This document shows positions 5,405-34,471 of a stretch of DNA of 34,471 nucleotides, piece after piece. The stretch comes from an uncultured Planctomycetia bacterium. Its GTDB lineage: Bacteria; Omnitrophota; Gorgyraeia; Duberdicusellales; 4484-171. The stretch's first letter is position 1. Each line of letters begins with the position of its first letter. A program made the position numbers and the translations under genes. The stretch lies in the NCBI GenBank assembly GCA_964577045.1, contig CAZNWL010000001.1, positions 1 to 34,471 on the forward strand, given 5' to 3'. The notes beneath the pieces are model-generated. The model made no database searches. It was not told where the DNA came from and was given only the letters and a program-made list of their open reading frames with translations.

Positions 5405-5815
5405 ATGACTAAAATCGAAAAACCTACCTTAACCGAGGATATTCTGAATATCCTGCGCCTTTTATCTTCCGGCAGTAACTTAAGCCAGAGGGATGTTTCT
5501 GCCCACCTGGAAATCTCGCTGGGTAAAACCAATTACCTTTTAAAATCGCTGATTAAGAAAAATTTAATCAAAGCCATAAACTTTTCCCGCCATCCCGGTA
5601 AATTAGGAAAAGTCAGGTATATTCTCACCAAAAAAGGTTTGGAAGAAAAACTTAACCTGATGTACCACTTCTTAAAGAAAAAAGAGGCAGAGTATAACCA
5701 TATCCGTGAAGAATTGGCCAAGTTGGAAGGAGAGAAGCCAGCAGCAAATCAACCGAAAGAAGTCGATGGCCATTTGTCTTATCAGTTGAAAGGGGGAGCG
5801 AATGAAAACAAATAA
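5405..5815 (+). CDS. EPS-associated MarR-family winged-helix transcriptional regulator
   Basis: LSQRDVSAHLEISLGKTNYLLKSLIKKNLIKAINF...KVRYILTKKGLEEK matches the HTH and wing of the small MarR-type regulators found in exopolysaccharide loci. Confidence 0.7.
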   Translation: MTKIEKPTLTEDILNILRLLSSGSNLSQRDVSAHLEISLGKTNYLLKSLIKKNLIKAINFSRHPGKLGKVRYILTKKGLEEKLNLMYHFLKKKEAEYNHIREELAKLEGEKPAANQPKEVDGHLSYQLKGGANENK

Positions 5816-6764
5816 GAAAGTTTTAGTGGCCGGCGCCGGCGGCTTTATCGGCCATCATTTGGTTAATTATTTGAAAGCCAAAGGCTATTGGGTGAGAGGA
5901 GTTGACCTGAAGAACCCCGAGTTTGAGGAAACTCGCGCCGATGATTTTAAACTTATGGATTTACGCCTATTTGATAATTGCCGCAAAGCCTGCCAAGGGA
6001 TGGAAGAAGTTTATCAGCTGGCTGCGGATATGGGCGGTATCGGCTATATTACTAAAAATCACGCCGAGATTTTTAAAAACAACGCTCTGATTAACCTGAA
6101 TGTTTTAGAGGCGGCGCGTTTAGCCGGAACAAAGAACTATCTTTATACCAGTTCTGCCTGCATTTATCCCCAGTATTTACAGAAAGATTGCCGGGTTAAG
6201 CCGTTAAAAGAAGAGGATGCTTATCCGGCTGATGCCGAGCCGGGTTATGGGTGGGAAAAACTATTTTCGGAATTAGCCTGCCAGTATTACAGTGAAGATT
6301 TCGGCTTCAAAACCCACGTGGTCAGGTTTCATAATATTTTTGGGCCTCTAGGCACTTATCAGGGCGGAAAAGAAAAATCTCCGGCGGCGATTTGCCGCAA
6401 GATTGCCTTGGCCAAAGACGGAGACGAGATTGAAGTTTGGGGCGATGGAAAACAAACCCGTTCTTATTGCTATATCGATGATTGCGTCGAAGGAATTTAC
6501 CGGCTGATGCAGAGCGGTTATACCCGGCCGCTTAACCTGGGCCAGGACCGTTTAATCAGCGTCGACGAGCTGGTGGATATAGTGGCTAAAATTGCCGGGA
6601 AAAAAATAATCAAACGTTACGATTTAAGCAAGCCCCAGGGGGTCAGAGGAAGAAATAGCGATAACACGCGCCTGCGCCAGGTTCTTAAGTGGGAACCGCA
6701 GGCCAGCCTTGAGCAGGGGCTGGAAAAAACTTATCGCTGGATTAAAAAACAGGTGGGAGGTTAA
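5802..6764 (+). CDS. GDP-mannose 3,5-epimerase-like extended SDR
   Basis: [31 protein letters not shown] (YxxxK) and [25 protein letters not shown] closely resemble GME-type epimerase motifs. An RBS (AGGGGGAG) precedes the ATG. Confidence 0.6.
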
Positions 6765-6765
6765 T

Positions 6766-7647
6766 ATGAAAGGGATAATTTTAGCCGGAGGTTTGGCTAC
6801 GCGGCTTTATCCGGTTACCAAAGGCGTTTGCAAGCAAATGCTTCCGGTTTACGATAAGCCGCTGATTTATTATCCGCTTTCTATTTTAATGCTGGCCGGA
6901 ATCAGGGATATCCTGATAATTTCTACGCCTAAAGATACGCCGCGCTTTAAGGATTTGCTCGGCCAGGGAAAAGATTTAGGGGTCAAGTTTTCTTATCAGG
7001 TTCAGGATAAGCCCGCCGGCATTGCCCAGGCATTTATCCTGGCAGAGGAGTTTATCGGCGGAGAAGAAGTTTGCTTAATCCTCGGCGACAACATCTTATA
7101 CGGGCATAACCTCTCCGAGCTTCTGGAAGAAGCGATGAGCAATTTAGAGGGCGCAGTCATCTTCGGTTATTACGTAAAAGAGCCCCAAAGATATGGCGTT
7201 ATTGAGTTTGATGACCAGCACAATGTTTTGTCCATTCAGGAAAAGCCAAAAAATCCTAAGTCGAATTGGGCGGTAACCGGATTATATTTTTACGATAACC
7301 AGGTAGTTGAGATTGCCAAAGCGCTTAAGCCTTCGTCCCGCGGAGAGCTGGAAATCACCGATGTGAATAACGAGTATTTAAAAAAAGGGAAGTTGAAGAC
7401 TAAACTTTTGAGCCGCGGCTATGCCTGGTTGGATACCGGAACATATGATTCCTTGATTGACGCGGCGATGTTTATTAAGACTTTAGAAGACCGCCAGGGA
7501 TTAAAAGTAGGTTGCATTGAAGAAGTGGCTTTCCGCAAAGGCTATATCAGCGCCCAAGAGTTAAAAAAGCTGGCCCGTCAGTTGAACACTAACTACGGAG
7601 AGTATTTATCGCAAATTTTAGCTGAAGGAGAAGCTGATGCCGTTTGA
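6766..7647 (+). CDS. rfbA: Glucose-1-phosphate thymidylyltransferase
   Basis: [32 protein letters not shown] and YAWLDTGT match RmlA. I chose the ATG at 6766 over the track start at 6709 because it follows an RBS (AGGTGGGAGG) and matches the canonical RmlA N-terminus. Confidence 0.9.
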
Positions 7648-8194
7648 ATTTAAGAAGTTAGAAATCCCCGAGGTTATTTTAATTAAGCCTAAGTTAATCA
7701 GCGATGACCGCGGCTTCTTTATGGAGGCTTACAAGGAAGATGATTTCGCCAAGTTCGGGATTAAGGATAAGTTCGTCCAGGAAAACCACTCTAAATCTTT
7801 CGCTAAAGGGGTAATCCGCGGCCTGCATTTTCAGAAAAAACCCATGGAACAGGCTAAACTAGTGAGAGTAGTTTCCGGAAGCATCATGGATGTAGCTGTA
7901 GATATCAGGCGCGGCTCAAAGACTTTTGGCAAATGGGTTTCCAGCTTACTTTCTACCAAAAACCGGGCCATGCTTTATATACCCGAGGGGTTTGCTCATG
8001 GCTTCTGCACTTTGGAAGAGAACACCGAAGTTCTTTACAGCTGCAGCAATGAATATTCTCCAGCCCATGACCGGGGGATTATTTGGTCGGACAATTTTAT
8101 TAATATCCATTGGCCGGTGCTCGAGCCAATTTTATCCGAGCGGGATAAAAAATGGCCTACTTTGCATGAGGCGGATTTAGGGTTTAATTATTAG
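7637..8194 (+). CDS. rfbC: dTDP-4-dehydrorhamnose 3,5-epimerase
   Basis: Cupin-fold RmlC motifs are present (DDRGFF.E, RGLHFQ, KLVRV.SG...[15 protein letters not shown]). The 185-aa length fits. Confidence 0.9.
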
Positions 8195-8208
8195 TCTATT
8201 TATTAAAT

Positions 8209-8277
8209 GATTACAGCGATTAGGGAAAGATTACAGTGATTGTTAATCTGCGTAATCTATATTAAATCTCTGTAATC
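8209..8277. repeat. Four-copy 13-mer array: GATTACAGCGATT (8209-8221), GATTACAGTGATT (8229-8241), and inverted copies AATCTGCGTAATC (8245-8257) and AATCTCTGTAATC (8265-8277)
   Basis: Read directly from the rfbC-rfbB spacer. Same-orientation copies are 20 nt apart. The outer pair is complementary at 12/13 positions and the inner pair at 10/13, so the copies could form nested hairpins. Confidence 0.55.
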
Positions 8278-8302
8278 AATTTCCGAGAGGAACGAAGAAA
8301 CT

Positions 8303-10363
8303 ATGGCTGAAAATATTTTAGTAACCGGAGGCTGCGGTTTTATCGGCTCGCATTTTGTGCGTTACCTTTTGCAAAACAAAGGCAACTGCAACGTATTTAA
8401 TTTGGATAATTTAAGCTACGCCGGAGACGAGGCCCGTTTAAAAGATATCGCTAAAAATAAAAACTATCATTTCGTCAAAGCAGACCTGCGCAATATCGCT
8501 GATATCGAAGAAGTTTTTTCCCATCCCATAGACACGGTTGTGCATTTGGCGGCCGAAAGCCACGTAGACAATTCCATAAAAGACCCTTTTGTTTTTGAAG
8601 AAGTGAATGTCCGGGGCGCGCTTAACCTTTTATCTTGTACCCATAAATATAAGGTAAAGAAATTTGTTCATATCAGCTGCTACGATGAAACTACGAGAGC
8701 TTTAACCATAAAGGGGTTTAAAACCTATAAAGAACTTCGAAAAGGAGATTTAGTTTTTTCTTTGAATCCTCATACGAAAGAGATAGAACTGAAACCAATA
8801 GAGAAAGTTATTATACAAAAATATAAAGGTTCCATGATTCATTTTAATAACAGGAGGATAGATTTGCTCGTAACTCCTAATCATAATATGTTTATTCTTA
8901 ATAGCGCTAGGAAATTAATTAATGAACCAGCTTGGAAGTCGTGCAAGCGCAGCATTTTTTATATGCCTCGGGGGTGCTGGAAAGGTATAGAAAACGAGTC
9001 TTTCTACGTCAAAAGCTATGGGCGAGTAAATACCAATGATTTATTTTATATTCTAGGTATTTTCATAGGGGATGGTTTTACTGCTTATCAGGAAAAAATT
9101 TCTGAGACAATAACCGGATTGTCGCGAAAAAGTTATCTATTGAAAGCAAGAGATAAAATTAGTGGACGGTTCAAATCAATAGTTAGACAAGGGAGTTATA
9201 AGAGCATAAATCGTGGTTATCGCATATTTTTTGATATTCCAGAAAATGATGCGTGCCGGCCGAAAGTAGAAAGAGCTTTATCGCGAATGGGAATTAAATA
9301 TCACGCCCATAAGGGTAAGGCTGGAACCCATTTATATTTTACATCGAGAGCATTTATGAAATTTTTCAATCAATGTGGCCAAGGAGCGGTTAACAAACAT
9401 ATCCCCCACTGGGTTTTGGCTTATTCACAGGAATACTTAAAATATTTGTTTGAAGGGTTGATGGATTCAGATGGAAGCAAAAATCGTATTTATTTTACAG
9501 TTTCACCAATGTTAGTTTCTAATATTGTTGAACTTTCTATGAAATTAGGTTTAAAGCCCAACATTAATAAACGATACTGTATATCTTATATTCGTTCTAG
9601 AAAGATCGAAGGCGAATCTTATTATATTTCCTTTGGGGAGACAGAAAAATCAATCTCTAGGAATCGGATTAGGGAAGTTAATTATGCTGGCGACATTTGG
9701 TGTTTAAAAGTTAAAGATAATAAAAATTTTATTGTTGAGAGGAACGGAAAAATTGATTTTTGTGGAAATACCGATGAAGTCTACGGCGAAATCAAGCAAG
9801 GTAAATTTACCGAAGAGTCTCCTTTGGCGCCGAATTCGCCCTATTCGGCAAGCAAAGCTGCGGCGGATTTTTTGGTCAGGGCTTATGTGCGCACCTATAA
9901 TTTCCCGGCTGTCATTATCCGTCCTTCCAACAATTACGGCCCCTGGCAATATCCCGAAAAGTTTATTCCTGTGGCTATTTCCAGCGTTCTTTCCGATAAG
10001 AAAATCCCGGTTTACGCTCAAGGCTTGAATTGCCGCGAATGGCTTTATGTCACTGACTGCGCCAAAGGTATTGCTTTAGTGATGGATAAGGGCGTAATCG
10101 GCGAAGTTTACAATTTAGGTTCGGGTATGGAAAAAAGAAATATCGATGTAGCCAGAGAAATTCTTAAACTGCTGGGAAAAGAAGAAAACTTCATTGATTT
10201 TGTCACTGACCGGCCAGGGCACGATTTTCGTTACTCGCTGGATTCGTCAAAGATTAAGGCTTTAGGCTTTAGCCCCCAGATGGATTTTCAAACTGGAATC
10301 AAGAATACCGTGGAATGGTATAAAGAAAAAAGGACTTGGACCGAGGAAAAGTTGGGTATTTAG
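8303..10363 (+). CDS. rfbB: dTDP-glucose 4,6-dehydratase precursor interrupted by an in-frame intein (exteins 8303-8677 and 9770-10363)
   Basis: The N-extein carries VTGGCGFIGSH, HLAAESHVD and ends FVHIS. The C-extein resumes with TDEVYGE and carries SPYSASK, RPSNNYGP.Q.PEK and DRPGHD.RY. The joined exteins total 322 aa, a normal RmlB length. Confidence 0.9.
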   Translation: MAENILVTGGCGFIGSHFVRYLLQNKGNCNVFNLDNLSYAGDEARLKDIAKNKNYHFVKADLRNIADIEEVFSHPIDTVVHLAAESHVDNSIKDPFVFEEVNVRGALNLLSCTHKYKVKKFVHISCYDETTRALTIKGFKTYKELRKGDLVFSLNPHTKEIELKPIEKVIIQKYKGSMIHFNNRRIDLLVTPNHNMFILNSARKLINEPAWKSCKRSIFYMPRGCWKGIENESFYVKSYGRVNTNDLFYILGIFIGDGFTAYQEKISETITGLSRKSYLLKARDKISGRFKSIVRQGSYKSINRGYRIFFDIPENDACRPKVERALSRMGIKYHAHKGKAGTHLYFTSRAFMKFFNQCGQGAVNKHIPHWVLAYSQEYLKYLFEGLMDSDGSKNRIYFTVSPMLVSNIVELSMKLGLKPNINKRYCISYIRSRKIEGESYYISFGETEKSISRNRIREVNYAGDIWCLKVKDNKNFIVERNGKIDFCGNTDEVYGEIKQGKFTEESPLAPNSPYSASKAAADFLVRAYVRTYNFPAVIIRPSNNYGPWQYPEKFIPVAISSVLSDKKIPVYAQGLNCREWLYVTDCAKGIALVMDKGVIGEVYNLGSGMEKRNIDVAREILKLLGKEENFIDFVTDRPGHDFRYSLDSSKIKALGFSPQMDFQTGIKNTVEWYKEKRTWTEEKLGI
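8678..9769 (+). mobile_element. Intein (364 aa) with a LAGLIDADG homing-endonuclease domain, inserted in rfbB
   Basis: It starts with Cys (CYDETTRALT) and has a TxxH block (LLVTPNH). The two dodecapeptide motifs are LGIFIGDGF and LFEGLMDSDGS. It ends IVERNGKIDFCGN, followed by Thr at +1. The insert is AT-rich: I counted 19/60 GC at 8821-8880 versus 30/60 at 9841-9900. Confidence 0.85.
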
Positions 10364-23312: not shown

Positions 23313-24569
23313 ATGGCTAAAAAAATTATTGATAACATTAGGTTTATAAAGCGGGACCTGTCCCCAAAAATGAAGATTCCGTTTGGCACGATTACAGTGA
23401 GCGAGAAGTCAAGGCAGCTGATTAACGCGGCTTTGGATGCAAACCGCCTTTCTTCGGGTAAATACGTGCGCGAGTTTGAAGAGAAGTTTGCCGCGCTGGT
23501 CGGGGTAAAAGAAGCCGTGGCAGTGGCCAGCGGCACTGATGCTTTGGCTTTGGCCTTGGCTGTGCTTTATGATTTCGGCGCCAGAAAAAACGATGAAGTA
23601 ATTATTCCGGCTTTGTCTTTTGTGGCTACGGGTAATGCGGTGCTGCAAGCCGGGTTTAAGCCGGTTTTCGTGGATGTGGATTTAAAAACTTTAAACATCA
23701 TCCCGGAAAAAATAGAAGCGGCAATCAGCGCGAAAACTCGGGCTATTCTTCCGGTACATTTGATGGGAAAGCCCGCGGCTATGGAGGCGATAAACCGCAT
23801 CGCTAAAAAGCGCAAGCTCTATGTGATTGAAGACGCGGCTGAAGCCCATGGCGCAGAATATAAAGGTAAGCGCGCCGGAAGCCTGGCTGATATGGGAGCT
23901 TTCAGCCTTTATGTGGCGCATATTATTACTACTGCCGAAGGCGGGATAGTCACTACTGATAATTCTGCATTCGCCGAAATCTTAAGGTCTTTGCGTTCAC
24001 ACGGCCGGGCTTGTAAATGCAGGAGCTGTGTGTTAAATACTGCCTCCAGTTTTTGCGACAAAAGATTCAAGCAGGGGAAAAATAAAGATATCCGCTTTAT
24101 CTTTGAGCGCATTGGTTTTTCCTGCAAAATGAATGAGCTGGAAGCAGCTATCGGCATCGGCAATTTAGACAACTATCAGCAAATTCTGGATAAAAGAAGG
24201 GCGAATTTGCTTTATTTAATCAATAAGTTTAAAGAGTTTCGGCCATATTTAACCACTATCTGCGAAGAGGCCGGCGAAAAAATCGGGCCGCATGCGTTTC
24301 CTTTTATCGTGGGTAAAAAGGCGAAGTTCAGCCGCGAAGAATTAAGCGGATTTTTAGAAAAGAGAGGAGTGGATACCCGCACTTTGTTTTCCTCAATCCC
24401 TACGCAATGCGCGGGATTTAAATTTTTAGGGCATAAGTTGGGGGATTTTCCTAATGCCGAATATATCGGAGAAAACGGCATACATATCGGGGTGCATCAG
24501 GATTTAAATAAGGGGCACATGGAATATTTTATTAACTTGATTCACGAATTTTTAAAAGCCAATGCCTAA
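23313..24569 (+). CDS. DegT-fold PMP-dependent NDP-4-keto-6-deoxy-sugar 3-dehydratase candidate (E1/RfbH/ColD-like)
   Basis: GAFSLYVAHIITTAEGG aligns residue for residue with GAFSFFPSKNLGAFGDGG of the upstream DegT. This places His203 (23919-23921) where the PLP lysine sits. A Cys cluster CKCRSCVLNTASSFCDKRF follows (24012-24056). Confidence 0.6.
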   Translation: MAKKIIDNIRFIKRDLSPKMKIPFGTITVSEKSRQLINAALDANRLSSGKYVREFEEKFAALVGVKEAVAVASGTDALALALAVLYDFGARKNDEVIIPALSFVATGNAVLQAGFKPVFVDVDLKTLNIIPEKIEAAISAKTRAILPVHLMGKPAAMEAINRIAKKRKLYVIEDAAEAHGAEYKGKRAGSLADMGAFSLYVAHIITTAEGGIVTTDNSAFAEILRSLRSHGRACKCRSCVLNTASSFCDKRFKQGKNKDIRFIFERIGFSCKMNELEAAIGIGNLDNYQQILDKRRANLLYLINKFKEFRPYLTTICEEAGEKIGPHAFPFIVGKKAKFSREELSGFLEKRGVDTRTLFSSIPTQCAGFKFLGHKLGDFPNAEYIGENGIHIGVHQDLNKGHMEYFINLIHEFLKANA

Positions 24570-26952
24570 AACTAAACACGCGATTATTCTCGGCGCCGGA
24601 GCAGTGGGCCTGGTTTCTGCCTGGAAGCTTTTGGATGAAGGCTTTAAGGTGGACATCTATGAAAAAGATAGCCAGGTTGGCGGAATGTGCAAGACCTGGA
24701 AGTGGAAAGAGTTTTTAGTGGATTGCGGCCCGCATATTTATCATACCCCCGATGAAAAATTAGCCGGATTCTGGGAGAAAGAGTTCGGCGACTTATTCGT
24801 GAAAGGGGATTTCTGGTGCAAAAACGTCAAAGGCGATAATTTTAACCAATACTGGGATTACCCGCTTTCCTGGGAAAGCATTTCCCGTTATCCTAAAAAG
24901 CTAAAAGACAAGGTTTTGTCTGAACTGCATAATATCAGCTTTGAAAAAAGAACGCAGGCGAAAAACTATACCGAATATATGGAGGCGCAAGTCGGCCAGA
25001 CTTTACGGGAGATGTTTTTTAAGCAGTTCCCGGAAAAAATCTGGGGCATTTCCACTGACACTATGGCTTGCGAATGGGCGCCTAAGCGCATTGAAGTGCG
25101 CCAGAAGGTCACGCCTTTTTACCACCGGCAGTGGAATGCCGTGGGTAAATTCGGAACCGGCTGTATTTTTGAGCGGATAAAAGAAAAAATTGAAAAATCC
25201 GGCGGGAAAATCCACCTTAACTGCGAAGTGAAAGGCTTTGAAACCAAAGGAAACTTGATTACCGCTGTCAAATTAACCGGAGGAAAAATCAGGAAAGTGG
25301 AACCCGAAGATGTGATAATTTCCAGCTTGCCGATTACTCTGCTGGCTAAATTTTTGGGCTATAACAGCAAGCTGAAGTTCAGGGCTTTGCGCACAGTTTA
25401 TTTAGCCTACGATAAGCCTATGATTCTGCCTCAAGGCATAGACTGGCTTTATTATGATTCGCCAAAAACTTATTTCAGCCGGATTACCGAGCCGAAAAAA
25501 CTTTCCAAAGCTTTAGCGCCTAAAAATAAAACTTACCTTAGCGCAGAAATAACCTGCGCCCAAGGCGATAAGATTTATCAAATGGATAAAAATAAACTGA
25601 TTAAAGAAACAGCCCGACAAGTGGAACTGGTGGGTTTGATAGAAGCAGGCCAGTTAAAAGAGGCAACAGTGCATACCGAAGATTATGTCTATCCTATTCA
25701 AGGCCGGGGCTATCAAGAGGAGCTTTCTAAAACCCGCGCGGTAATTACTAAATACCAACAGCTTTATTCTCTGGGCACCGGCGGAGAGTTCCACTATGCT
25801 GATATTCAGATAATCTTTCATAAAGTTTTTGACTTGGTAGCCGTACTTTGCGGGAAAGATTCAAAAATAAGCCAGACTATTCGTAAAACCCCGCGCTGCC
25901 AGCTGAATACAAGTATTTTTATCGGAAAGCGCGAGATAAGCGAAGCAAAGCCGGCTTATATCATTGCCGAAGCCGGCTTAAACCATAACCAGAGTCTAAC
26001 TATTGCCAAAAAGCTGATTGATGCGGCGAAAGAATCCGGAGCAGACAGCATCAAGTTTCAAAGTTTTAAGCCGGGCAGCCGCGTCTCTAAAAAAGTAAAA
26101 GCCGCGCGTTATGCCGAAACTATTATCGGCACCGAAGAAACTATCGCTGATATGTTTGACCGCTTGAGCTTAAGCTACGCCGACCAGAAAGAGCTTTTTA
26201 ACTACGCCCGTAAAACCGGCATAGAAATATTTTCCACTCCTTTTGATTTTGAAAGCGCTGACTTCTTAAACAGCTTAGGAGTGAATGTTTTTAAAATCGC
26301 TTCTATGGATTTGGTGAACCTGCCTTTGATTAAACATATCGCCGGCTTCGGCAAACCCATGATTCTTTCTACGGGCATGTCCACTTTAGGCCAGATCGAA
26401 GAAGCTTTAGAGACTATCCGCCAGCAGGGAAATCCCAACGTGGCTTTGCTGCATTGTAACTCGGCTTATCCGGCTGCGCCCGAAGAGATGAATTTAAAGG
26501 TGATAGATACTTTGAAGAGCTGTTTTAAAGTTCCGGTCGGGCTTTCTGACCATACTTTCGGCTTGGCAGTTTCCCATACGGCGCTGGCCTTAGGCGCGAA
26601 TTTAATCGAGCGGCATTTTACTTTGGATAGGGCAATGGAAGGCCCTGACCATATCTTATCTTCTACGCCCGAAGAGTTAGCAGAGCTGGTTTCTCTGGCT
26701 AAAAAAATCCCGCTGATTTTAGGCGACGGAATAAAACGCATCCAGCCTAATGAGTATGATACTTTGAATATGCAGCGAAAAAGCCTTTACGCCGCGCGCA
26801 ATATTAAAAAAGGCGCGGTGATTACTTCGGATATGATTGTCATTAAAGGCCCGGGAGGCGGTTTGTTACCGCGCTATTTAGAAGTAGTTACCGGAAGAGT
26901 GGCGCGCGCGGATATTGAAGAGGACCATCCGATTACCTGGGATGTGATTTAA
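24562..26952 (+). CDS. Fusion protein: N-terminal FAD-dependent oxidoreductase (amine-oxidase / UDP-galactopyranose-mutase-like fold, aa 1 to ~435) plus C-terminal NeuB-type ulosonic-acid synthase with a SAF domain (aa ~451-796, nt ~25912-26949)
   Basis: The N-terminus carries the dinucleotide motif ILGAGAVGL...DIYEKDSQVGG. The C-terminus carries YIIAEAGLNHNQS, KFQSF, FSTPFD, KIASMD, STGMS, LLHCNSAYPA, LSDHT and a SAF-like tail. It is one continuous 796-aa ORF. Confidence 0.8.
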   Translation: MPKTKHAIILGAGAVGLVSAWKLLDEGFKVDIYEKDSQVGGMCKTWKWKEFLVDCGPHIYHTPDEKLAGFWEKEFGDLFVKGDFWCKNVKGDNFNQYWDYPLSWESISRYPKKLKDKVLSELHNISFEKRTQAKNYTEYMEAQVGQTLREMFFKQFPEKIWGISTDTMACEWAPKRIEVRQKVTPFYHRQWNAVGKFGTGCIFERIKEKIEKSGGKIHLNCEVKGFETKGNLITAVKLTGGKIRKVEPEDVIISSLPITLLAKFLGYNSKLKFRALRTVYLAYDKPMILPQGIDWLYYDSPKTYFSRITEPKKLSKALAPKNKTYLSAEITCAQGDKIYQMDKNKLIKETARQVELVGLIEAGQLKEATVHTEDYVYPIQGRGYQEELSKTRAVITKYQQLYSLGTGGEFHYADIQIIFHKVFDLVAVLCGKDSKISQTIRKTPRCQLNTSIFIGKREISEAKPAYIIAEAGLNHNQSLTIAKKLIDAAKESGADSIKFQSFKPGSRVSKKVKAARYAETIIGTEETIADMFDRLSLSYADQKELFNYARKTGIEIFSTPFDFESADFLNSLGVNVFKIASMDLVNLPLIKHIAGFGKPMILSTGMSTLGQIEEALETIRQQGNPNVALLHCNSAYPAAPEEMNLKVIDTLKSCFKVPVGLSDHTFGLAVSHTALALGANLIERHFTLDRAMEGPDHILSSTPEELAELVSLAKKIPLILGDGIKRIQPNEYDTLNMQRKSLYAARNIKKGAVITSDMIVIKGPGGGLLPRYLEVVTGRVARADIEEDHPITWDVI

Positions 26953-31832: not shown

Positions 31833-32617
31833 GAAAAGGAAAAATCGCCGCGATTATTCAAGCCCGGATGGGCTCAACCCGCTTGCCGGGAAAAATCCTG
31901 ATGGAGGTAAACTATCGTCCGCTATTGGATTATATGGTGGAGCGGGTAAAAAGGAGCAAATATATCAAGCAGGTGATTATCGCTACCACTGTTTCTCACC
32001 AAGACCAGCCGATAGTTGACTGGTGCAAAGCTAATCAGGTGGAATTCTGCCGCGGCGATGAGGAAGATGTTTTGGCCCGTTATTACTATGCTGCCAAGGA
32101 GTTTAAAGTTTCCGTAATCGTGAGAGTTACTTCAGACTGCCCGTTAATGGATCCGGAAGTTATTGATAAAACCATTGAGGCTTTTCTTGGCGATTCGCAT
32201 CTCGATTTTGCCTCAAGTACTACGCCGCTGCCTTGTTTATATCCTGACGGCATGGACGTGGATGTTTTTAATTTTAACCTTTTAGAGAAAACTCATTACG
32301 AAGCCAAACTTCCTTCGGAAAGAGAGCATGTAACCTTTTATATGTGGAAGACTGGAAAATTTAAAGTGAAAAGAATCGACCCTAAAGAGGATTTGTCTTC
32401 TTATCGTTTTTGCATTGACTATCCTCAAGATTTTACCGTGATACAGGAAGTGTTGACTAAACTTTACCCAAAAAATCCTAAGTTTTCCGTGTATGAATTG
32501 ATAGATTTTATGAAAGCTAACCCCCGGCTTTTAGCCTTGCAGAAAGGCATTAAGCGCAATGCCGGCTGGCAAAGGGCTTTGGATAAAGACTTAAAATATT
32601 TGGAGCAAAACAAATGA
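31817..32617 (+). CDS. SpsF-like cytidylyltransferase (CMP-ulosonic-acid synthetase family)
   Basis: KIAAIIQARMGSTRLPGK.L, the VIIATT motif and RVTSDCPL are typical of the SpsF/NeuA-like cytidylyltransferase family. Confidence 0.75.
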   Translation: MQSTIRKGKIAAIIQARMGSTRLPGKILMEVNYRPLLDYMVERVKRSKYIKQVIIATTVSHQDQPIVDWCKANQVEFCRGDEEDVLARYYYAAKEFKVSVIVRVTSDCPLMDPEVIDKTIEAFLGDSHLDFASSTTPLPCLYPDGMDVDVFNFNLLEKTHYEAKLPSEREHVTFYMWKTGKFKVKRIDPKEDLSSYRFCIDYPQDFTVIQEVLTKLYPKNPKFSVYELIDFMKANPRLLALQKGIKRNAGWQRALDKDLKYLEQNK

Positions 32618-34471
32618 AACCGCCAAAAAAGAGTTTAGCTTTACAGGAAAAAGGAAAAAAGTTTATTCCCGGCTTAACCCAGCTTCTTTCTAAAAGGCCT
32701 GACCAGTTTGCTCCCGGGCTTTGGCCGGGATATTTTGAAAAAGCCAAAGGCATAGAAGTCTGGGATTTGGACGGAAACCGTTATCTGGATATGAGTATCA
32801 GCGGCATCGGAGCAGTAATTTTAGGTTATTGTGATCCTGATGTGGATAAGGCAGTTAGAGAAGTAATCAAGAAAGGCAATTTTTCTTCGCTCAATTGCCC
32901 GGAAGAAGTCGAACTTGCAGAGTTACTTTGCGAAATCCATCCCTGGGCGAAGCTTGTGCGTTATGGCCGCGGCGGCGGAGAAGTTATGGCTATTGCCGTG
33001 CGCATTGCCCGCGCCTTTACTGGCCGCGATAAAATAGCTTTTTGTTATGACGAAACAACAGAAATACTCACAAGAGATGGTTTTAAAAGAATCAAAGATA
33101 TAGATAAACAAGAAGTAGTAGCTACTCTCAATCCCACTACAAATCAATTAGAATACAAACAGATTGAAAGAAAGCTGAGGTATCGCTTTTCAGGGAAAAT
33201 GATACATTTCAAAGGGCAAAGGGTTGATTTAATGGTGACTCCTGAACATAAAATATATAGGAAGTTTCGCTTAAGAAAGGGTTATCATTTTAAATTAGTG
33301 GAAGCCAGAAGTGCTTTAAGATCTAAAGTAATGACTCAAATGACTTCTGTATGTGAGTGGAAAGGTGAAGTTAAGAAAGAGATTGTTATTCCTCAAATAG
33401 TTGGTCAAACTCGGCCAACAAAGGGCATTTGTTCATTTTCCGCGAAAGCTTTTGTTAGATTTATGGGTTGGTACTTATCCGAGGGTTGTTGCGTGGAACA
33501 GAAGAGAAGGAGATATGAAGTAAGTATAGCTCAAGATAGAAAGAATTTCAATAAGAGCAGGGAAATATTCTCAACGATTAGAAAATTGGGATTTGCTCCT
33601 TACCGGAACGGGCATCATATTTGTTTTAGCTCTAAAGAGTTGGTGCAATATTTAAAACAATTTGGAAAGTGCAAAGATAAGTATATTCCAGATTGGATAA
33701 AAAATTTGTCCACTAACTATATTTCTATTTTTGTAGACGCTATGATAAAAGGAGATGGCACTTTTGAGAAAGGTAAAATACGCAAATTCTATTCTACCTC
33801 TAAAAGATTGATAGATGGTATGCAAGAGATATTATTGAAAATTGGTTATTCTACCACAGTTTCAGAGCACACCAACATTGGATTTTCTAAAGATAAAGTA
33901 TATCATTTATATATAAGTAAGGAGAATATTTTAGGAAGTTGGCCAGAAGAGGAATATTACGATGGTTACGTATATTGCGTAACTGTGCCTAACCATATCG
34001 TTCTCGTGAGACGAAATGGAAAATTAGCCTGGTCAGGAAATTGCGGCTACCACGGTTGGTGTGACTGGTATTTAGCCGCTAATTTAAGTTCGGATAAGTC
34101 GCTGGAGGGGCACCTGTTACCGGGATTAGAGCCACGGGGTGTCCCCAGAGGCTTATTGGGGACGGCTTTGCCGTTTCGTTACAACAATATAGAAGAGTTG
34201 GAAAAGATTGTTCGGAATACTAAAGGCAATTTGGCAGCAATCGTGATGGAGCCGATTAGAAACGACCCCCCCCAGAAAGGATTTTTAGAGGCCGTGCGTA
34301 AAATTGCCGATAAAACCGGCGCGGTTTTAATTTTTGATGAGGTATCTTGCGGCTTTCGGATGAATTCCGGCGGCGCGCATCTTTTATTCGGCGTTACGCC
34401 GGATATCGCTGCTTTTGCTAAAGGCATGAGCAACGGTTATCCGATGGGAGCAGTCATAGGCAGAGAAAAGG
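32614..34471 (+). CDS. Class-III (glutamate-1-semialdehyde aminomutase-like) PLP aminotransferase precursor interrupted by an intein; the 3' end lies outside the window. It is not in the supplied ORF track.
   Basis: I translated this frame by hand and it is open from the ATG at 32614 (ATGA overlap with the upstream stop) to nt 34471. The N-extein carries GIEVWDLDGNRYLD and ends RAFTGRDKIAF. The C-extein resumes CGYHGW and carries AAIVMEPI, LIFDEV..GFR and the PLP lysine motif AFAKGMSNGYP. Confidence 0.85.
   Translation, partial: MKPPKKSLALQEKGKKFIPGLTQLLSKRPDQFAPGLWPGYFEKAKGIEVWDLDGNRYLDMSISGIGAVILGYCDPDVDKAVREVIKKGNFSSLNCPEEVELAELLCEIHPWAKLVRYGRGGGEVMAIAVRIARAFTGRDKIAFCYDETTEILTRDGFKRIKDIDKQEVVATLNPTTNQLEYKQIERKLRYRFSGKMIHFKGQRVDLMVTPEHKIYRKFRLRKGYHFKLVEARSALRSKVMTQMTSVCEWKGEVKKEIVIPQIVGQTRPTKGICSFSAKAFVRFMGWYLSEGCCVEQKRRRYEVSIAQDRKNFNKSREIFSTIRKLGFAPYRNGHHICFSSKELVQYLKQFGKCKDKYIPDWIKNLSTNYISIFVDAMIKGDGTFEKGKIRKFYSTSKRLIDGMQEILLKIGYSTTVSEHTNIGFSKDKVYHLYISKENILGSWPEEEYYDGYVYCVTVPNHIVLVRRNGKLAWSGNCGYHGWCDWYLAANLSSDKSLEGHLLPGLEPRGVPRGLLGTALPFRYNNIEELEKIVRNTKGNLAAIVMEPIRNDPPQKGFLEAVRKIADKTGAVLIFDEVSCGFRMNSGGAHLLFGVTPDIAAFAKGMSNGYPMGAVIGREK
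33043..34041 (+). mobile_element. Intein (333 aa) with a LAGLIDADG homing-endonuclease domain, inserted in the class-III aminotransferase
   Basis: It starts CYDETTEILT and has a TxxH block (LMVTPEH). The dodecapeptide motifs are MGWYLSEGC and IFVDAMIKGDGT. It ends LVRRNGKLAWSGN, followed by Cys at +1. The insert is AT-rich: I counted 17/60 GC at 33241-33300 versus 38/60 at 32941-33000. Confidence 0.85.

Follow-up and report, generated by a model that had tools for sequence, protein, structure and literature searches.

The 686-aa rmlB open reading frame of an uncultured, probably Omnitrophota, bacterium encodes a dTDP-glucose 4,6-dehydratase that is interrupted by an intein directly before its catalytic Thr; the insert is very probably a selfish, mobile LAGLIDADG intein of the class 1 type. 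Dozens of public genomes carry the same element at this site, which makes it one more ordinary representative of a known kind rather than a rarity. The gene occupies 8303..10363 on the forward strand of the window (the whole 34,471-nucleotide stretch of DNA analyzed here), and its frame is open across 2058 nt. A sequence-only reading of the window had proposed a 364-codon insert at 8678-9769 in this 686-aa frame, with RmlB-like sequence stopping at FVHIS and resuming at TDEVYGE. We confirmed both points: the insert (precursor residues 126-489, nt 8678..9769, 364 codons) is in frame, contains zero stop codons, and lies between Ser125 (...KKFVHIS) and Thr490 (TDEVYGE). The features are given below; clade counts refer to 67 complete inteins.

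8303..8677, + strand: N-extein of rmlB (residues 1-125), the Rossmann half with the NAD-binding GGCGFIGS, up to ...KKFVHIS; TIGR01181 and PDB RmlB chains match up to the junction.
8675..8677, + strand: Ser-1 codon AGC (AGY type), which travels with the close intein subclade.
8678..9769, + strand: intein of 364 aa, a HINT splicing domain with an inserted LAGLIDADG homing endonuclease, from profile and fold matches.
8678..8716, + strand: block A, CYDETTRALTIKG, with the Cys1 nucleophile (Cys126), which is Cys in 67/67 clade inteins.
8855..8896, + strand: block B, RIDLLVTPNHNMFI, with Thr66 (B:7), His69 (B:10), and Met71 (B:12), from clade conservation.
9041..9082, + strand: LAGLIDADG motif 1 (block C), LFYILGIFIGDGFT, GIFIGDG, with catalytic Asp132, acidic in 65/67 clade inteins.
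9392..9415, + strand: block D, NKHIPHWV, with conserved Lys240 and Pro243; Lys in 64/67 clade inteins.
9437..9478, + strand: LAGLIDADG motif 2 (block E), LKYLFEGLMDSDGS, GLMDSDG, with catalytic Asp265, which is Asp in 60/67 clade inteins.
9689..9739, + strand: block F, GDIWCLKVKDNKNFIVE, with Cys342 at F:4 (precursor Cys467), where Asp is usual; Cys in 67/67 clade inteins.
9740..9769, + strand: block G, RNGKIDFCGN, with Cys362 (G:5), Gly363 (G:6, penultimate), and the cyclizing Asn364 (G:7), from clade conservation.
9770-9772, + strand: Thr+1 codon ACC, the first C-extein codon and the start of the catalytic TDE motif.
9770..10363, + strand: C-extein of rmlB, residues 490-686 plus the stop codon, from TIGR01181 and PDB RmlB matches.

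Removal of the insert gives a single unbroken match to TIGR01181 (419.6 bits; cutoff 365.1), compared with 396.3 bits for the unspliced precursor. The spliced RmlB aligns without gaps to the structures 6bi4 and 2hun across vSTDEVYG, the sequence that PDB RmlB chains carry at the junction. The junction expected of intein-free homologs was likewise found: among the 120 matches listed, 78 read exactly HIS-TDEVYG (the hyphen marks the insertion point here and below) and 105 read xxS-T(D/E)EVYG. According to a review, the catalytic triad and acid/base pair of dTDP-glucose 4,6-dehydratases make up the motif [ST]DE...Yx3K (PMC8987622); by this definition the Thr+1, Asp, and Glu of the window's RmlB are catalytic, which bears out the earlier claim that the +1 Thr is the first residue of the TDE active-site motif. 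The C-extein carries the Yx3K motif as YSASK (Tyr514), and the NAD site (GxxGxxG criterion) is present as GGCGFIGS. S-TDE is contiguous only after splicing. The unspliced precursor should be inactive, because the first 125 residues, which bind NAD, are parted by the insert from the catalytic Thr, Asp, and Glu, and it is reasonable to suppose that sugar supply should depend on splicing.

The base composition of the insert sets it apart from its surroundings. As had been remarked from the letters, it is more AT-rich than the exteins, with a GC content of 0.338 (N-extein, 0.405; C-extein, 0.446; window, 0.432) and a GC3 of 0.294 (N-extein, 0.44; C-extein, 0.477). Only 0.09% of 1092-bp segments are equally GC-poor, and measured against segments that overlap neither of the window's two inteins the insert has a z of -4.6. 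An assembly artifact was considered and is ruled out by the same architecture in 27 other genomes, together with an identical protein on a JGI metagenome contig that is possibly not independent of the window.

The matches that identify host and insert (TIGR01181, the intein family profile, and Foldseek) are far beyond chance. For the AF2 model of the intein (pLDDT 92.8), the best Foldseek matches in the PDB are PI-PkoII (2cw7), PI-PfuI (1dq3), the Tli and Pho VMA inteins, and PI-SceI, followed by I-DmoI; the solved inteins are matched with E = 2e-14 to 6e-12 and a probability of 1.0, and the matches include the HINT domains of Prp8 and BIL. Foldseek matches to I-DmoI (E ~5e-5, probability 1.0) and to the endonuclease domains of PI-SceI and PI-PfuI support the LAGLIDADG alpha-beta-beta-alpha-beta-beta-alpha fold. 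A profile of the intein family matches PI-PkoII, the Tli VMA intein, and PI-SceI (E 1.8e-12 to 2e-6); in this alignment block D (NKHIPHWV) pairs with NKRIPEFV of PI-PkoII, and the F:4 Cys with the Asp of YVYDLSV in the same protein. The comparison with HINT and LAGLIDADG families that had been suggested earlier thus returned both profile and fold matches, with Pfam PF14890 (Intein_splicing) falling just below its gathering score (32.8 bits vs. 35.8; E = 7.5e-8); three relatives (P0001, P0009, and P0010) have a precomputed PF14890 match. Pfam Hom_end was also below its gathering score on the intein (14.7 bits vs. a cutoff of 21.1; E = 0.034), and PF14528 (LAGLIDADG_3) was absent on it at E ≤ 1 in the Pfam search; the second intein of the window and relatives exceed the PF14528 gathering score. 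A single-sequence phmmer search of the intein against the PDB gave a marginal HINT-like match only (E = 0.82), and NCBIfam on the intein alone gave weak matches only, to models of intein-bearing RpoA'' and PolII; the relationship to solved inteins called for the family profile and the fold comparison.

The hallmarks of splicing that had been read from the sequence are all present: Cys1 in CYDETT, the TxxH block VTPNH (intein residues 65-69), two dodecapeptide endonuclease motifs (nt 9041-9082 and 9437-9478), and a terminal Asn followed by a Thr nucleophile (...FCGN-Thr). Across the 67 complete clade inteins, B:10 is always His, G:6 always Gly, and G:7 always Asn, and B:7 is Thr in all except one (66/67). 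The +1 residue is Thr in 50, Ser in 13, and Cys in 4, and G:5 is Cys in 47, Ser in 17, and Thr in 3. B:12 is M in 50, L in 9, V and I in 3 each, F and Y in 1 each, and Trp in none (0/67). In the endonuclease domain K240, P243, and Asp265 are invariant in intein alignment A2. Two usually helpful residues are missing, the penultimate His being replaced by Gly and the F:4 Asp by Cys; a penultimate His is common in inteins and Asp is the commonest F:4 residue, but neither is obligatory.

These two absences, along with the Intein_splicing score below the gathering value, might indicate a degenerate, non-splicing intein, in which case rmlB would effectively be a pseudogene or the insert a permanent inactive domain. 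We consider this very unlikely indeed. Both supposed defects are invariant traits of a clade under purifying selection (intein vs. intein dN/dS ~0.09-0.13), every nucleophile is preserved, and no stop interrupts the 2058-nt frame. The exteins have a dN/dS of 0.073/1.02 (~0.07) against an intein-free homolog, and the neighboring rmlA and rmlC are intact. The penultimate Gly, already pointed out as a departure from the usual His, is indeed present but is no defect, because it is invariant in the clade and because a phage intein with a penultimate Gly splices efficiently and completely (PMC5050341).

The residues shared by the clade also bear on the choice of splicing pathway. Class 3 inteins use a Cys-His-Thr triad (PMC7664689), which the F:4, G:5, and +1 features of the clade recall, and in a class-3-like or hybrid route Cys F:4 would serve, besides Cys1, as a nucleophile at the N-terminal junction and relay the N-extein to Thr+1. 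An invariant F:4 Cys, a thiol or hydroxyl at G:5 (Cys, Ser, or Thr), and a +1 residue that is mostly Thr or Ser would suit such a relay, and three known WCT inteins retain an N-terminal Ser or Cys (PMC2807308). Such a route is nonetheless decidedly unlikely here, given that the defining B:12 Trp is absent throughout the clade, that Cys1 is invariant and the TxxH block canonical, and that Cys is the second commonest F:4 residue in inteins generally, according to a review (PMC4031507). Membership of class 3 itself was considered and rejected, with the B:12 Trp absent and Cys1 present.

Intein disulfide "redox traps" are documented, and splicing of the window's intein might likewise be conditional, with a disulfide, formed under oxidizing conditions between Cys1 and F:4 Cys467 and/or the G:5 Cys, pausing both splicing and the supply of dTDP-6-deoxyhexose to the glycan cluster. 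Cys at position 1 and at F:4 in 67/67 inteins and at G:5 in 47/67 would be compatible with such a switch, as would the position of F:4, which in known inteins is adjacent to the two splice junctions (PMC2807308), and the occurrence of two clade inteins within one glycan gene cluster of the window. We regard this as unlikely, however; the clade inhabits many unrelated host proteins and viruses, which a selfish element fits better than a host-tuned sensor, and the closest extein relatives do without the intein. Our default expectation is fast, constitutive splicing rather than regulation. A broader proposal makes the clade a mechanistic intermediate between classes 1 and 3, with Cys F:4 either serving as a second nucleophile in a relay or exerting redox control over Cys1. 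It draws on three features in combination, namely invariant Cys1 and TxxH, invariant Cys F:4, and an invariant penultimate Gly next to a G:5 residue that is Cys, Ser, or Thr; we judge it improbable. The absence of a "missing link" has been used to argue for a convergent origin of class 3 inteins (PMC7664689). If the proposal were true, the clade would be that link between classes 1 and 3, and the dehydratase and aminotransferase steps of the glycan pathway would be coupled to the cellular redox state.

The preferred reading, a selfish and mobile class-1-type intein, is consistent with the distribution of the clade. Among the 80 best loci from GTDB species genomes the same rmlB site carries an intein 27 times, with occupied loci in over 10 bacterial phyla and in 3 archaeal groups. 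Same-site rmlB inteins include P0001 (candidate division WS2/Ca. Psychracetigena, 66% identity), L001-L012, L052, and P0009, the last of which carries the JGI annotation [quoted passage not shown]. They share with the window's intein the xxS-TDEVYG insertion point, the architecture, and the CYDExT...(C/S)GN ends, and they differ from it in host lineage and extein (39-62% identity); at the same rmlB site, P0022 is a mini-intein without an endonuclease. Sister alleles of the clade reside in other host enzymes and have 24-47% intein identity to the window; they are found in other SDR sugar enzymes (at the equivalent catalytic [ST]), NadE, NrdD, ThyX, and DNA methylases, and in Gmd-like (QAS-SSEMFG) and GalE-like (x-SSANVYG) proteins the insertion position is structurally equivalent. 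Loci of the clade number 445 in GTDB, at least 497 clade members lie on viral contigs, and large viral contigs bear S-TDE..G alleles of the clade. The InBase entry "Ter Ndse" is an intein in a Trichodesmium nucleoside-diphosphate-sugar enzyme. A search of the accessible literature for an intein in rmlB, an NDP-sugar enzyme, or an SDR returned nothing relevant and no paper on a same-site allele, and the main text of the intein census of Novikova (2016) mentions neither dehydratases nor epimerases.

Mobility is supported, at the level of sequence comparison, by the intein-free state of the closest exteins, by inteins that are more alike than their hosts, and by the codon pattern of Ser-1. The closest extein relatives (87, 81, and 79% identity) lack the intein and lie in syntenic loci. 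Within the close subclade, intein identity to the window is 54-69%, extein identity is 39-49% for the N-extein and 49-62% for the C-extein, and the intein value exceeds the extein value in every locus (n = 13). The GC content of the intein is 0.29-0.35 in 12 of these 13 loci regardless of host GC, with L012 at 0.435. The identical inteins of L004 and L005 were considered as a very recent transfer; this was rejected, as their exteins are also near-identical except for an indel, which makes them close relatives.

The Ser codon directly upstream of the intein is of the AGY type in all 14 alleles of the close subclade (the window and 13 loci) and in 0/12 alleles of the distant one (close vs. distant, Fisher p = 1e-7), and in intein-free alleles it is TCN in 74/75 and AGT in 1/75. 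A longer co-conversion tract was sought in the flanking codons; the signal is at the Ser-1 codon only, and the others vary freely. The pattern could instead stem from a target preference of the endonuclease or from shared intein ancestry rather than from repeated co-conversion. Read as hitch-hiking, an AGY Ser codon that moves across phyla and domains would be an unusually clear DNA-level trace of homing.

The likeliest mechanism is the following scheme, which takes its chemical steps from known intein chemistry. The 686-aa precursor would be translated and its HINT domain would fold, whereupon Cys126 (Cys1), aided by block B Thr191 and His194, would convert the Ser125-Cys126 bond into a thioester. 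The hydroxyl of Thr490 (+1) would attack this thioester to form a branched ester, and cyclization of Asn489 would then free the intein; this step is expected to need no penultimate His, Gly being the normal state of the clade. An O-to-N acyl shift would rebuild the Ser-Thr bond, and the resulting RmlB of 322 aa would have its S-TDE...YSASK active site intact. The freed 364-aa intein would act as a site-specific endonuclease that cuts intein-free rmlB alleles, probably at the highly conserved ...AT(H) TCN-ACN GAY GAR GTN TAY GG..., and recombinational repair would copy the intein gene with at least the adjacent Ser codon.

Another intein of the clade is present at 33043..34041, and both inteins of the window lie in one glycan gene cluster, where rmlA and rmlC stand beside rmlB. 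An NCBIfam scan of ten ORFs recognized no canonical rmlD; the pathway may accordingly end in L-rhamnose or in a related dTDP-6-deoxyhexose. An Rfam search of an upstream hairpin gave no match.

For annotation, the "double-length" RmlB of 686 aa is to be read as a normal dehydratase plus a removable element and not as a fusion or a pseudogene. It provides a clean textbook example of an intein whose host is a metabolic enzyme instead of one of replication and whose target is the single most conserved catalytic codon there. The clade has hundreds of members across uncultured bacteria, archaea, and viruses, and its chemistry, which combines Cys1, Cys F:4, and a penultimate Gly, appears to be biochemically uncharacterized; it could serve protein engineering as a source of Thr+1 and Ser+1 inteins.

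PI-PkoII (2cw7), PI-PfuI (1dq3), the Tli and Pho VMA inteins (7qsu and 7qst), and PI-SceI (1vde) have the same HINT horseshoe with an inserted two-motif LAGLIDADG endonuclease as the window's intein. These solved archaeal and yeast inteins have only 10-14% sequence identity to the window's intein and reside in DNA polymerase, RNR, and V-ATPase rather than RmlB, and PI-PkoII has Asp at F:4 where the window's clade has Cys. Class 3 inteins (MP-Be DnaB and Mch DnaB1) share with it the F:4 Cys, a +1 residue that is usually Thr or Ser, and a hydroxyl or thiol at G:5, but they have no N-terminal nucleophile and carry a B:12 Trp and a G:5 Thr, whereas the window's intein has Cys1, Met, and Cys at these positions. 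The intein of Mycobacteriophage Bethlehem gp51 (RDF) is, like the window's, of class 1, has Gly as its penultimate residue, and comes with an endonuclease (PMC5050341). It sits in a different host protein, and any sequence relationship to the window's intein is distant (mycobacteriophage inteins matched by tblastn have ~21% identity to it). The Bethlehem intein splices to completion, and replacing its Gly with His slows splicing (Kelley et al. 2016, PMC5050341).

The sequence-only reading had placed a LAGLIDADG intein inside the catalytic S-TDEVYG motif of the dTDP-glucose 4,6-dehydratase RmlB, and its coordinates and residue numbers proved exact; every intein motif it listed was found in the insert. 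The RmlB-like part ends in KKFVHIS (residue 125) and picks up again at TDEVYGE (residue 490), the 364 intervening codons beginning with CYDETT and finishing with FCGN.

Features of the rmlB ORF (ORF listing; motif mapping on the rmlB intein)
8303..10363, + strand: rmlB ORF with insert, 686 aa
8678..9769: insert, 364 codons
+ strand: block B, VTPNH
9041-9082, + strand: LAGLIDADG motif 1, LFYILGIFIGDGFT
9437-9478, + strand: LAGLIDADG motif 2, LKYLFEGLMDSDGS
+ strand: block F, GDIWCLKVKDNKNFIVE
+ strand: block G, RNGKIDFCGN

As had also been reported, the insert is AT-rich: its GC content is 0.338 against 0.405 and 0.446 in the exteins and 0.432 in the window, and its GC3 0.294 against 0.44 and 0.477. 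Equal-sized windows are as GC-poor in 0.09% of cases (z = -4.6 versus non-intein sequence).

Deletion of the insert yields a 322-aa product with a single unbroken match to TIGR01181, the NCBIfam equivalog for dTDP-glucose 4,6-dehydratase (419.6 bits; cutoff 365.1), and alignment with the RmlB crystal structures 6bi4 and 2hun is gapless across vSTDEVYG. Among the 120 matches listed for the spliced protein, the junction expected of intein-less homologues reads exactly HIS-TDEVYG in 78 and xxS-T(D/E)EVYG in 105 (hyphens mark insertion points throughout). Since [ST]DE...Yx3K provides the catalytic triad and Asp/Glu acid-base pair of dTDP-glucose 4,6-dehydratases (review of nucleotide-sugar dehydratases, PMC8987622), the intein lies directly before the catalytic Thr, which is predicted to serve as the +1 splicing nucleophile as well; YSASK is found downstream of TDE in the C-extein.

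The insert matches Pfam Intein_splicing at E = 7.5e-8 (32.8 bits, under the gathering score of 35.8) and, weakly, Hom_end. With sequence as the sole input, a family profile of 11 clade members detects PI-PkoII, the Tli VMA intein and PI-SceI (E 1.8e-12 to 2e-6). The AlphaFold2 model, for which 21 homologues were used, is confident (pLDDT 92.8, pTM 0.86), and its best PDB matches are intein-endonucleases without exception (PI-PkoII, PI-PfuI, the Tli and Pho VMA inteins and PI-SceI; E 2e-14 to 6e-12), followed by the free-standing LAGLIDADG enzyme I-DmoI and then by HINT-only domains. Profiles and predicted fold together support the interpretation of the insert as an intein.

By analogy with standard intein chemistry (PMC4031507), splicing would proceed through an N-to-S acyl shift at Ser125-Cys126, transesterification onto the Thr490 hydroxyl, Asn489 cyclisation and an O-to-N acyl shift. 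This would leave a 322-aa RmlB whose S-TDE site is intact and release the 364-aa intein as a free endonuclease, which could then cut empty rmlB alleles at the same highly conserved sequence. With the insert lying between its NAD-binding half and the catalytic residues Thr, Asp and Glu, the unspliced precursor is expected to lack activity. No second ORF in the 34-kb window reaches the RmlB threshold, and in that sense dTDP-6-deoxyhexose synthesis would depend on splicing; no sign that splicing is regulated was seen in this analysis.

Positions 381-32617 form one co-directional nucleotide-sugar and glycan biosynthesis cluster, with at least nine SDR epimerase/dehydratase paralogues, two DegT aminotransferases, sat/cysC (PAPS synthesis), fcl, a Gmd-like gene, transketolase-like subunits, two radical-SAM enzymes, a CMP-sugar cytidylyltransferase and an ABC exporter. 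It also holds an unusual 796-aa fusion (24562-26952, + strand) of an N-terminal FAD/NAD(P)-binding amine-oxidase/UDP-galactopyranose-mutase-like domain to C-terminal NeuB (nonulosonic acid synthase) and SAF domains. No canonical rmlD was recognised in an NCBIfam scan of ten ORFs of the window, so the final sugar is not certain.

Neighbouring genes and the second intein
6709-7647: rmlA, adjoining rmlC
7637-8194: rmlC, near rmlB
33043-34041, + strand: second clade intein, 333 aa, within a 3'-truncated ORF (~32611 to 34471)

The listed TTG start of rmlA gives a 19-residue N-terminal extension overlapping the preceding ORF (5802-6764). Because similarity to TIGR01207 starts at residue 21, translation probably begins at an internal ATG (MKGIILAGG). 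The 108-nt rmlC-rmlB spacer (8195-8302) contains GATTACAG(Y)GATT three times, twice in direct and once in inverted orientation (chance expectation 0.06), and folds into a nested hairpin of ~70 nt at about 8208-8278 (MFE -25.8 kcal/mol, z = -3.45) with no Rfam match. The spacer is specific to this locus, since the two genes overlap by 8 nt in the intein-free syntenic loci L082 and L083.

A six-frame family-HMM scan found no more than two inteins in the window, so that of the cluster's genes just rmlB and the terminal aminotransferase carry one. The second begins CYDETTEILT, finishes RNGKLAWSGN-CGYHGW and cuts a class-III (GSA-aminomutase-like) aminotransferase at its conserved GYHG motif. Its identity to the rmlB intein is 24% (E = 5e-27); it scores above threshold for Pfam LAGLIDADG_3 and has a GC content of 0.341 versus 0.46-0.50 in its exteins. 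An allele resembling it (...-SGFHGWHDWY) is present on a viral contig, L193.

The rmlB intein has 27 database relatives at E <= 1e-3; scans found 445 confirmed clade loci in GTDB (one genome per species) and at least 497 loci in IMG/VR. Of the best 80 of the 445 GTDB loci, 27 have the intein at the insertion point xxS-TDEV[YF]G, and hosts with this site filled include Planctomycetia, Omnitrophica, Clostridia, WS2/Ca. Psychracetigena, NPL-UPA2, Patescibacteria, Actinomycetota, Gammaproteobacteria, Armatimonadota and Chloroflexota among bacteria, and Diapherotrites, an Asgard archaeon and Thermoplasmata among archaea. Among the matches listed, the nearest relatives of the window's extein are intein-free 322-aa proteins (87, 81 and 79% identity), those named being Candidatus Omnitrophota; two of the nearest intein-free genes are syntenic (rmlC-rmlB-fcl), L083 with sat/cysC upstream too. 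At every close-subclade locus the intein (54-69% identity to the window) is better conserved than the N-extein (39-49%) and C-extein (49-62%), and its GC content is 0.29-0.35 at 12 of 13 loci regardless of host GC (0.435 at L012).

The codon of Ser-1, the last N-extein residue, is AGY in the window and all 13 close-subclade loci versus TCN in all 12 distant-subclade loci (Fisher p = 1e-7); it is TCA in both syntenic intein-free relatives and TCN in 74 of 75 intein-free metagenomic alleles. Passing from TCN to AGY takes at least two substitutions and leaves the protein unchanged. The pattern is most simply explained if the AGY codon came in with the intein through co-conversion in homing; alternatively, this lineage of endonucleases may prefer such targets. 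A ~170-aa mini-intein at the identical rmlB site (P0022, 508 aa), its endonuclease deleted from just past the start of LAGLIDADG motif 1 (DLMYLIG|KKGK...), fits the homing cycle as an expected decay stage.

Clade members also occupy the equivalent catalytic [ST] of other SDR nucleotide-sugar enzymes, in Gmd-like proteins at QAS-SSEMFG (L027, L032, L042) and GalE-like proteins at -SSANVYG (L025, L036). RmlB-like S-TDE..G alleles lie on viral contigs of 406 and 239 kb (L164-L168), making viruses plausible vectors. These distributions suggest spread between paralogous SDR sites and virus-borne transfer. Further hosts include NrdD, ThyX, methylases and, most commonly, NadE (NAD+ synthase), one more metabolic, non-replication target, cut at GY(F/Y)-TK(Y/F)GDGG (many of L028-L051; P0014-P0020) in Archaeoglobaceae, Nitrososphaerota, Bipolaricaulota, Chloroflexota and Omnitrophota.

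The rmlB insert is a known kind of intein at a site already filled in many deposited genomes, and at least one relative is so annotated (P0009, labelled by JGI 'nucleoside-diphosphate-sugar epimerase/intein/homing endonuclease'). In the literature that could be searched, no paper on an rmlB intein was found. The allele may therefore be unpublished, but it would still not count as an element of a new kind.

Residues at motif-block positions in 67 GTDB and IMG/VR clade inteins, each covered end to end by one profile match
A:1: Cys 67/67
B:7: Thr 66/67
B:10: His 67/67
B:12: Met 50, Leu 9, Val 3, Ile 3, Phe 1, Tyr 1, Trp 0
F:4: Cys 67/67
G:5: Cys 47, Ser 17, Thr 3
G:6 (penultimate): Gly 67/67
G:7: Asn 67/67
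+1: Thr 50, Ser 13, Cys 4

The block D Lys and the two acidic residues of the endonuclease are each retained in 60 to 65 of the 67. dN/dS between close inteins is ~0.09-0.13, and that of the host extein against an intein-free homologue 0.073/1.02; inteins and host extein alike are under purifying selection. The penultimate Gly, flagged earlier in place of the usual His, is indeed present, but as a worry it falls away: like Cys F:4 it is invariant, and both are therefore clade traits rather than decay. A literature search found no published characterisation of Cys1/Cys F:4/Gly G:6 chemistry; a redox gate or class-3-like relay via Cys F:4 is possible but unsupported. Class 3 inteins by definition have no N-terminal nucleophile and carry Trp(B:12)-Cys(F:4)-Thr(G:5) (PMC2807308); of these features the clade has Cys F:4 alone, and class 3 membership was rejected. 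One naturally occurring intein that has Gly as its penultimate residue splices to completion, and more slowly once that Gly is replaced by His (PMC5050341). A review ranks Cys second among the residues found at F:4 in inteins (PMC4031507). At F:4, in the alignment from the family profile search, this clade has Cys whereas PI-PkoII has Asp.
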